DNA of 20,307 bases. It comes from a virus. Shown here piece by piece: positions 19,559-20,235 of the stretch; the stretch's first letter is position 1, and every line of letters starts with the position of its first letter. The position numbers and the translations under genes were made by a program. The stretch lies in the IMG/VR virus record IMGVR_UViG_3300032164_003094; one strand, written 5' to 3'. The notes below the pieces were generated by a model, which saw only the letters and a list, made by a program, of their open reading frames with translations, was not told where the DNA came from and ran no database searches.

Positions 19559-19795
19559 ATGGCGACAAAGCTCGAGCGAGAGGCCGTCCTGATGGCGTCC
19601 AAGATGGAGGCCTTCGCCCAGGAGGTCGACTCGTTCGGGAAACGCAAGCTCGGCACCCTACCGAAGGGCGCGGCCTGGACTCTCCTGAGGGCATCCCTTG
19701 CCTTGATAAGCGCCGCCTCGAAGGTCCAGCTCGAGGTTGCGAAAAAGCACGTCAAGGACACGAAAGCCCACTTCGCTGAGACGGGACGGCCGTGA
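19559..19795 (+). CDS. Small hypothetical helical protein, 78 aa.
   Basis: Divergent from the MVP gene across a 72-nt gap. Its TGA stop overlaps the GTG start of the NUDIX gene (GTGA). Confidence 0.4.
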   Translation: MATKLEREAVLMASKMEAFAQEVDSFGKRKLGTLPKGAAWTLLRASLALISAASKVQLEVAKKHVKDTKAHFAETGRP

Positions 19796-20235
19796 GCGAC
19801 GACAAGCTCCAAAGGTGGATAGAGTATACTAAGGACCTCCCCACGACTCGTAAGGCGTCATTGGCCATCGTGCAGAAGGGAGGGCTCCTTCTCTCCATCT
19901 CCCGCGAGAATGATCCCGACGACTGGACGCTCCCTGGCGGAAAGCTCGAGCCCGGCGAAAACTGGTTGGTCGGCCTCGTACGGGAGGTCCGGGAAGAGGC
20001 GGGCGTCGAGGTAATCTCGGCCGACCTCATCCACGAGGGTGACTCCGACGACCAGCATTATGTGCGTGTCTACGTCTGCCGGCTGGCAGAATACCCGGAG
20101 GCCTTTCCCGTGAATCCAGAAGGAGTGGTCAAGTGGGTAAAGCCGCACGAGCTGGTAAAAGGGTGCTTCCGAAAGTTCAACATGCTAGCGCTGTCGGCGG
20201 CGGGTGTGGATCTCGGTCATGGAAGAATGACTTGA
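19792..20235 (+). CDS. NUDIX hydrolase, 147 aa.
   Basis: The Nudix box GGKLEPGENWLVGLVREVREEAGV fits G-x5-E-x7-REUxEExGU exactly. Confidence 0.8.
   Translation: MSDDKLQRWIEYTKDLPTTRKASLAIVQKGGLLLSISRENDPDDWTLPGGKLEPGENWLVGLVREVREEAGVEVISADLIHEGDSDDQHYVRVYVCRLAEYPEAFPVNPEGVVKWVKPHELVKGCFRKFNMLALSAAGVDLGHGRMT

Follow-up and report, generated by a model that had tools for sequence, protein, structure and literature searches.

The stretch of viral DNA analysed here (IMG/VR record IMGVR_UViG_3300032164_003094; 20,307 nt, hereafter the window) carries at nt 19559–20235 two adjoining genes on the plus strand, a small open reading frame (ORF) encoding 78 aa and a gene for a Nudix hydrolase. A 72 bp spacer separates them from a divergent MVP-like gene, beyond which lies a gene for a macrodomain protein (macro). 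The positions of these and other features of the window are listed in Table 1.

The small ORF and Nudix gene pair

Residues 50–72 of the Nudix protein (GKLEPGENWLVGLVREVREEAGV) fit the Nudix box pattern GX5EX7REUXEEXGU exactly, and no second match to the box occurs in the six-frame translation of the whole window. The protein matches Pfam NUDIX (PF00293) with E = 2e-14 and 54.2 bits (curated cut-off 21.1) and the PHROG family phrog_1198, 'MutT/NUDIX hydrolase' (5.5e-19); PADLOC returned a generic Nudix candidate (PDC-S07) and nothing more specific. The residues R64, E65, E68 and E69 (REx2EE) are invariant among 60 homologues, and AlphaFold gives an alpha/beta/alpha Nudix fold (pLDDT 92, pTM 0.84). 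From the intact box and the modelled fold, the protein is predicted to be a catalytically competent, minimal MutT-like enzyme. The preliminary description of this DNA, made from the sequence, had pointed to a perfect Nudix box divergent from MVP across a small ORF, and this is borne out in each particular.

The Nudix ORF is a real, intact gene. GC content along the plus strand ORFs follows the GC1-high, GC2-low, GC3-high pattern that genes in the window (62% GC) show, and this pattern is not seen in the antisense ORFs. Both ORFs are kept in relatives, and the Nudix homologues start at the same position, with MS(D/E)(D/E)KL. Compared with closer relatives, dN/dS is 0.13–0.20 for the Nudix gene, indicating purifying selection, and 0.17–0.30 for the small ORF. 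The GTG start of the Nudix gene overlaps the TGA stop of the small ORF (GTGA), i.e., the two are translationally coupled, and together they constitute a two-gene, plus strand operon.

The two products differ in charge, the Nudix protein being acidic (pI 5.2) and the 78 aa protein basic (pI 10). The latter has no match in Pfam, PHROG, NCBIfam or PADLOC, and its homologues are confined to this phage clade, where each lies directly upstream of a Nudix gene. AlphaFold predicts, at low confidence (pLDDT 65), a helical hairpin with helices at residues 4–30 and 38–75. An element of the form GGTTACAG-N6-TGTAGGGTAT (nt 19531–19554; GTTACAG...TGTAGGGTAT) ends 4 nt before the ATG of the small ORF and is kept across the clade, with or without MVP. 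A sigma-70 promoter scan found nothing in the divergent spacer, and the spacing of this element does not fit sigma-70.

Table 1. Positions of features in the window (nt), with supporting matches
Feature	Position	Strand	Details
CN-hydrolase	2012–2788	−	
HNH/endonuclease VII-like gene	1479–2048	+	
dCTP deaminase	8964–9839	−	Pfam DCD 1.4e-36; TIGR02274 94.9 bits (cut-off 92.8)
Family-A DNA polymerase, 998 aa	9906–12902	−	
DnaJ	12917–14026	+	J domain, zinc finger, C-terminal domain
SCO6735/ALC1-like macrodomain, 166 aa	16250–16750	−	PDB 5e3b 5e-36; phrog_335
Repeat copy 2, CTGTATTTTGCGCC	16751–16764	−	Abuts macro ATG
Intrinsic-terminator-like hairpin	16766–16800	−	15 bp stem with 11 GC pairs, T tail; closely follows MVP stop
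MVP-like gene, 892 aa	16808–19486	−	Pfam MVP_shoulder 2.6e-29, Vault_3 1e-7
Repeat copy 1, CTGTAACCTGCGCC	19525–19538	−	MVP cassette boundary
Upstream element, GGCGCAGGTTACAG...TGTAGGGTAT	19525–19554		Ahead of small ORF; first 14 nt on minus strand = repeat copy 1
Small ORF, 78 aa, basic two-helix protein	19559–19795	+	First gene of small ORF/Nudix pair
Nudix hydrolase, 147 aa	19792–20235	+	GTG start; Pfam NUDIX, phrog_1198, predicted fold
Nudix box, G50-X5-E56-X7-R64-E65-V66-X-E68-E69-X-G71-V72	19939–20007	+	Read from translation

Family placement and predicted substrate class

A word-indexed search with the Nudix protein recovered a tight clade of 17 metagenomic proteins (59–86% identity), beyond which E-values fall steeply, to about 1e-15. 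An exhaustive search, covering 1.84 billion representatives, put nothing but the cluster of the clade itself below 1e-30, and about 480 short Nudix proteins (roughly 120–140 aa) were found at 1e-20 to 1e-10. This minimal Nudix family occurs mainly in large phages and giant viruses, and alignment of the homologues showed one motif ahead of the box, SR..D..D(F/W).LPGGK, and another after it, EG.VKWV.P..L..G.F..(Y/F)N..L. To this the window clade adds an N-terminal extension of 20 aa that is predicted to be helical (helix at residues 3–13).

When the single sequence was compared with the PDB, the best match was to DIPP (3.5e-8), followed by MutT/NUDIX, the CTP pyrophosphohydrolase NudG and MutT2, with an ADP-ribose pyrophosphatase reaching only about 7e-3. 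The family profile matched MutT/NUDIX 3id9 (1.7e-16), BdRppH (3e-16), MutT (2e-14) and NudG (3e-14), and gave 1.8e-8 for the ADP-ribose pyrophosphatase 1v8i. Alignment to E. coli MutT by hhalign was full length (113 columns, 98% probability, E = 1.3e-13). The base-binding Phe and Asn in the C-terminal FPPAN motif of MutT line up with F126 and N130, both of which are conserved in the family, N130 to at least 90%. The best NCBIfam matches were PRK08999, NudG and MutT, and the top Foldseek matches were BdRppH, MutT2 with 5-methyl-dCTP, NUDT4, CDP-Chase, NudG and NudI. By these comparisons the protein looks like one of the minimal enzymes of the MutT, NudG, BdRppH and DIPP kind, and not like the ADP-ribose pyrophosphatases. 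The preliminary description had presented it as a handler of ADP-ribose or nucleotide pyrophosphates and had held that a MutT assignment, together with a lack of conserved linkage to MVP or macro, would speak against its module; profiles, motif and fold all side with the MutT-like class, a placement made by similarity.

Two narrower assignments were dropped. A DIPP or inositol-pyrophosphatase assignment, to which the best PDB matches of the single sequence pointed, agrees with neither the acidic pI nor the preference of the profile for MutT-type enzymes, and the alignments span mainly the box region. A T4 NudE-type hydrolase of ADP-ribose, FAD and Ap3A was set aside since the alignment is limited to the box; the matches annotated as 'nudE' in Acinetobacter phages are a different small Nudix, located between pseT and cd.

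The preferred reading, given a probability of about 0.45, makes the Nudix protein a pyrophosphohydrolase of the (d)NTP type that serves phage replication. The enzyme would bind Mg2+ or Mn2+ through its REx2EE helix and cleave a pyrophosphate bond, converting (d)NTP to (d)NMP and PPi, and would sanitise or remodel the nucleotide pool during phage DNA replication. In one possible version, it would work downstream of the phage dCTP deaminase, with a pyrimidine dNTP as its substrate. Remodelling of the dNTP pool together with this deaminase had been mentioned in the preliminary description, and it is the part of that account favoured here, with a substrate class predicted from sequence. In every relative with context the Nudix gene has primase on one side and DnaB on the other, and shares its block with dCTP deaminase. 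Elsewhere in the family, members have nucleotide genes as neighbours: pseT and cd flank Acj61p213, NT5C is at position +1 in three loci, and the protein P0018 adjoins a nucleoside deoxyribosyltransferase-like gene. The family has no conserved neighbour: of about 78 loci, the largest neighbour cluster covers 6, and the genes found alongside are mixed (ferritin-like, CoaE, NT5C, NADAR, Hsp70, and eukaryote-type genes in giant virus contigs).

P0018 (locus L019, JGI 3300076147, nt 1463–8165) is the closest Nudix outside the clade, with 38% identity. Its gene starts at the stop codon of the nucleoside 2-deoxyribosyltransferase-like gene, and Thg1, RlaP, a second Nudix and a metallophosphatase are encoded nearby.

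Several points weigh against a (d)NTP-type enzyme. The NCBIfam scores are far under the equivalog cut-offs (MutT, 30.1 against 97.9 bits; NudG, 30.5 against 156; NudI, 24.1 against 95), so the protein is no orthologue of any characterised enzyme, and for that reason we infer its substrate class, and likewise its biological role. The substrate specificity of Nudix enzymes is notoriously hard to predict from sequence, the substrate call for the whole family is drawn from similarity, and BdRppH, one of the top matches, acts also on 5′-triphosphate RNA. The gene adjoins an ADP-ribose-removing macrodomain across the clade, and family members lie 1–4 kb from a macro gene in three to four other lineages and next to NADAR in two. 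A characterised phage member of this small Nudix family was not found in the literature.

Macrodomain and MVP-like neighbours

The genes of the window belong to a block for DNA replication and nucleotide metabolism in a large or huge phage that is uncultivated. They include those for dCTP deaminase, a 998 aa family-A DNA polymerase, a full DnaJ, a primase zinc-ribbon protein, a sigma-like factor, an HNH endonuclease and a CN-hydrolase, and past the Nudix gene the relatives continue with DnaB and SNF2 helicase. The order common to the clade is DCD, PolA, DnaJ, primase, u213 and macro, then small ORF and Nudix, then DnaB and SNF2, with the small ORF/Nudix pair on the plus strand of an otherwise minus strand replication block. 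Relatives come from the 141.6 kb Logan contig SRR29054605_1328 and the 273.8 kb IMG/VR record IMGVR_UViG_3300037851_001277. No Rfam family or tRNA was matched anywhere in the window.

Some details of these genes may be added. The dCTP deaminase ORF encodes 291 aa, and relatives align only from residue 48–65 onwards, so its true start may be further in. The Pfam polymerase domain stops at residue 722 of the family-A polymerase ORF. The dnaJ gene lies between those for polymerase and primase. The CN-hydrolase has a weak likeness to the glutaminase part of NAD synthetase (phrog_36784, 2.6e-5) and matches NCBIfam NAD+ synthase at 2.8e-7, far under the cut-off; its gene is partly overlapped on the opposite strand by the HNH/endonuclease VII-like gene. 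In one relative only (L016/L017, nt 7707–8597), a GIY-YIG/NUMOD3 homing-endonuclease-like gene lies between primase and u213.

The macrodomain protein has no Pfam match at E ≤ 0.01. Compared with solved macrodomains over their full length, it is nearest to SCO6735 (5e3b), with BT1257 (2fg1) and 2afc close behind, so that the macro domain previously placed on the other flank of MVP is confirmed; matches to DarG (NCBIfam, PADLOC) are weak. Orthologues with 55–100% identity are present in all relatives with context. SCO6735 reverses the thymidine-linked ADP-ribosylation that DarT introduces into DNA (PMC9411070), and by analogy a stand-alone anti-DarT role at the replication genes is plausible for macro. 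At least 80 contigs of large phages carry homologues of macro, with 39–59% identity.

Next in rank, and rather unlikely, is that the Nudix protein is a pyrophosphatase of ADP-ribose or NAD derivatives working with the SCO6735-like macrodomain, which would free phage DNA modified by DarT, or other targets, of ADP-ribose and leave the Nudix enzyme to destroy it, or to destroy NAD-derived defence signals. The activity of SCO6735 is in keeping with this, as is the position of macro, adjacent and divergent to the small ORF and Nudix gene in 9/9 distinct clade members with context, and the processing of ADP-ribose by a macrodomain and then a Nudix enzyme has already been proposed for jumbo phages (PMC7824862, PMC9503650). 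However, the clade block is wholly collinear, so this adjacency adds little. Among 79 distant viral loci of the Nudix family (6 kb flanks), macro was found 2–4 kb away at four, and NADAR within about 1 kb at two (L033 and L067). In the reverse count, made with 80 phage loci carrying an SCO6735-like macro, a Nudix gene was present within 6 kb at 12, five of the small family and seven of the NadM type. The small-family cases, 1–4 kb from macro outside the clade, are the window clade, the related pair L110/L132, L123 and L157, with flanks otherwise unrelated, i.e., about four independent lineages. By a rough chance estimate, a single-copy gene in a 250 kb genome would fall within a 12 kb interval in about 5% of cases, near the observed 4/79 and 5/80, and macro is found near MVP with similar frequency (4 of about 93 loci). 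The macro–Nudix adjacency is conserved only in the collinear clade and is sporadic elsewhere (about 5–6% of loci).

The enzyme itself also fits poorly with ADP-ribose as substrate: a proline said to mark ADP-ribose pyrophosphatases (see below) is absent, there is no N-terminal dimerisation domain, these pyrophosphatases match 5–8 orders of magnitude worse than the MutT-like enzymes, and the likeness to T4 NudE is confined to the box. The connection to ADP-ribose via macro is accordingly weakened. In the seven loci with a NadM-type gene (L117, L120, L121, L128, L129, L135 and L170; about 2.6–4.0 kb in each), which represent one lineage, a NadM-like NMN adenylyltransferase-Nudix fusion of 360–384 aa lies 2–3 kb upstream of the SCO6735-like macro.

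It is improbable that the Nudix protein acts on RNA 5′ ends as a pyrophosphohydrolase or decapping enzyme of the RppH or BdRppH kind, converting 5′-PPP or NAD-capped RNA to 5′-P RNA and speeding the decay of host mRNA during takeover. BdRppH is the top Foldseek match and the second-best profile match, with a full-length alignment, and large DNA viruses commonly encode decapping enzymes of the Nudix kind (PMC9503650). However, BdRppH, which binds GTP as well (PDB 3ffu), is MutT-like in its own right, so the match does not discriminate; families of the E. coli RppH type score only E ≈ 2–4e-3, and a position in the replication block, and not in a host-takeover block, lends nothing to this proposal.

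A further suggestion, of comparably low probability, is that the 78 aa protein and the Nudix enzyme, beside an anti-DarT-type macrodomain, form an undescribed counter-defence unit and not a housekeeping pool sanitiser. The Nudix enzyme, perhaps targeted or regulated by the 78 aa protein, could then destroy a toxic or signalling nucleotide of the host, and the candidates could include ADP-ribose released by macro, gcADPR and chain-terminating ddhNTPs.

The MVP-like gene is a lineage-specific cassette, inserted into or lost from the spacer between macro and the small ORF. It is present in the window strain (L102/L103/L104) and in L002, L108 and L001, where the Nudix proteins are at least 77% identical to that of the window and the order is u213 <- macro <- MVP, divergent from small ORF -> Nudix; in L001 one extra gene (104 aa) lies between macro and MVP. 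It is absent from 5/9 distinct clade relatives (L016/L017, L018, L022 (=L109), L106 and L107), in which the Nudix proteins are 58–60% and the macrodomains 55–60% identical to those of the window. In four of these five (L016, L022, L106 and L107) the macro start codon is only 37–55 nt from the small ORF, and in L018 an extra ORF of 116 aa lies between them. The terminator-like hairpin after MVP is kept in L002, L108 and L001. A 14 nt imperfect direct repeat, CTGTAACCTGCGCC and CTGTATTTTGCGCC, flanks the cassette, and all relatives lacking MVP (including L018) have a single element, CTGTA-N7-9-CC-ATG, before macro. Between L002 and nt 15612–20235 of the window, amino acid identity ranges from 100% in macro through 96% in MVP, 92% in u213 and 88% in the small ORF down to 84% in Nudix, a mosaic divergence that suggests recombination breakpoints near the divergent spacer.

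The genes around MVP were also inspected in more distant phages. From 234 matching stretches in IMG/VR the best 80 MVP loci were taken (39–57% identity), and within 6 kb of MVP a Nudix gene was found at one and macro at one; apart from one weak macro match, no other tested protein of the window was found there. At 11 other MVP loci the counts were 0/11 for Nudix and 1/11 for macro (L005). Overall, macro lies near MVP at about 4/93 loci and Nudix at 1/93, so MVP has no conserved link to either gene, and MVP was absent from all 79 distant Nudix-family loci. On these comparisons MVP appears to be no functional partner of the Nudix enzyme. Of the linkages proposed for the region at the outset, that to MVP is not conserved, while that between macro and Nudix holds in the collinear clade and is weak elsewhere.

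Least probable by far is that macro, MVP and Nudix function together, as a shell like that of vaults and two partners handling ADP-ribose, which would echo the eukaryotic pairing of vault and PARP4: the order is kept in the window, L002, L108 and L001, and macro follows MVP by 0.5–1.3 kb in two other lineages (L005 and L152/L158), but the five relatives with macro and Nudix and without MVP, the terminator between MVP and macro, and the scarcity of either gene at other MVP loci mean that this is largely refuted by synteny. The coherent module of the preliminary description, in which two ADP-ribose enzymes bracket MVP, does not stand, given a cassette with its own terminator and flanking repeats that is missing from five collinear relatives, and it gives no basis for inferring an ADP-ribose-related function of phage MVP.

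MVP-like genes are common in large phage contigs, in contexts unrelated to that of the window (L189–L268, L005–L015). Their commonest neighbour, at 23/87 loci, is a gene just upstream for a 512 aa protein with DUF2828 and DUF7788. The window protein is 41–42% identical by tblastn, and 39–40% in full-length alignment, to proteins of 'uncultured phage' LR756500/1/3 (462 kb, 735 kb). In the 462 kb phage (L005; LR756500.1, nt 5197–15061), MVP lies near genes for an AAA ATPase, an RNA ligase, an HD and AAA_33 kinase-like protein and DFP, with a Pfam-type macro two genes downstream and a sigma factor nearby. Loci L152 (nt 1638–6504) and L158 (nt 2057–6477), from one distant huge-phage lineage, carry R2K ATP-grasp, MVP (28–30% identical to that of the window), a PTS HPr-like protein of 89 aa and an SCO6735-like macro. 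A recurrent MVP-then-macro pair, considered from L005 and L152/L158, was dropped since macro was present at 1/80 further MVP loci. A short glycine-rich, collagen-like stretch, GATGPQGPIGLRGFAGPAGAAYQGA, occupies residues ~427–451 of the window MVP-like protein, with a weak match to a tail-fibre PHROG.

With Nudix genes present in about 45% of jumbo phages (PMC9503650), a further example is no surprise. Of broader interest is that big phages and giant viruses encode a large family of minimal MutT-like Nudix proteins that is still uncharacterised. Within it, the Nudix protein of the window clade, with its place in the replication block, its obligatory partner and its anti-DarT-type neighbour, is a reasonable candidate for a nucleotide-pool or counter-defence enzyme.

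Comparison with known Nudix enzymes

The ADP-ribose pyrophosphatases (NudF, Ndx4, NUDT5 and NUDT9) and the NadM-type NMNAT-Nudix proteins have the Nudix fold and box in common with the window protein, which, unlike them, has neither the downstream proline nor an extra N-terminal or NMNAT domain. A proline about 15–16 residues past the box reportedly marks the ADP-ribose pyrophosphatases, an observation attributed to Dunn et al. in 1999. In the window protein no proline occurs at this distance; residues 87/88 are D/Q, there is none between residues 55 and 101, and the next is at 102.

T4 NudE, the product of gene e.1, is active on FAD, Ap3A and ADP-ribose. Like the window protein, it is phage-encoded, stand-alone and of similar size, but the two align only at the box (BLASTP E = 0.001 over 39 aa; hhalign probability 20%), which places the window protein outside the NudE clade. 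That clade typifies the ADP-ribose-active Nudix proteins of phages (PMC9503650).

MutT, NudG/Orf135, MutT2 of M. smegmatis, NudI and BdRppH share with the window protein a minimal fold of about 130–150 aa, the catalytic box, a conserved Lys after GG, and Phe-x3-Asn before the last helix. Identity to the members of this group is only about 21–28%, and, unlike them, the window clade has its own N-terminal helix and an obligatory upstream partner gene for the 78 aa protein.

The Nudix proteins of Acinetobacter phage Acj61 (gp213) and of phage 133 belong to the same small family, phrog_1198, as the window protein. Acj61p213 is the nearest member from a cultured phage (122 aa; 33% identity over 120 aa, E = 2e-23) and has the family motifs in common with it. 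Its gene sits between pseT and the dCMP deaminase gene cd, and not at the T4 e.1 locus. Unlike the rest of this family, the window clade is tight and isolated, and its place in the replication block is fixed.

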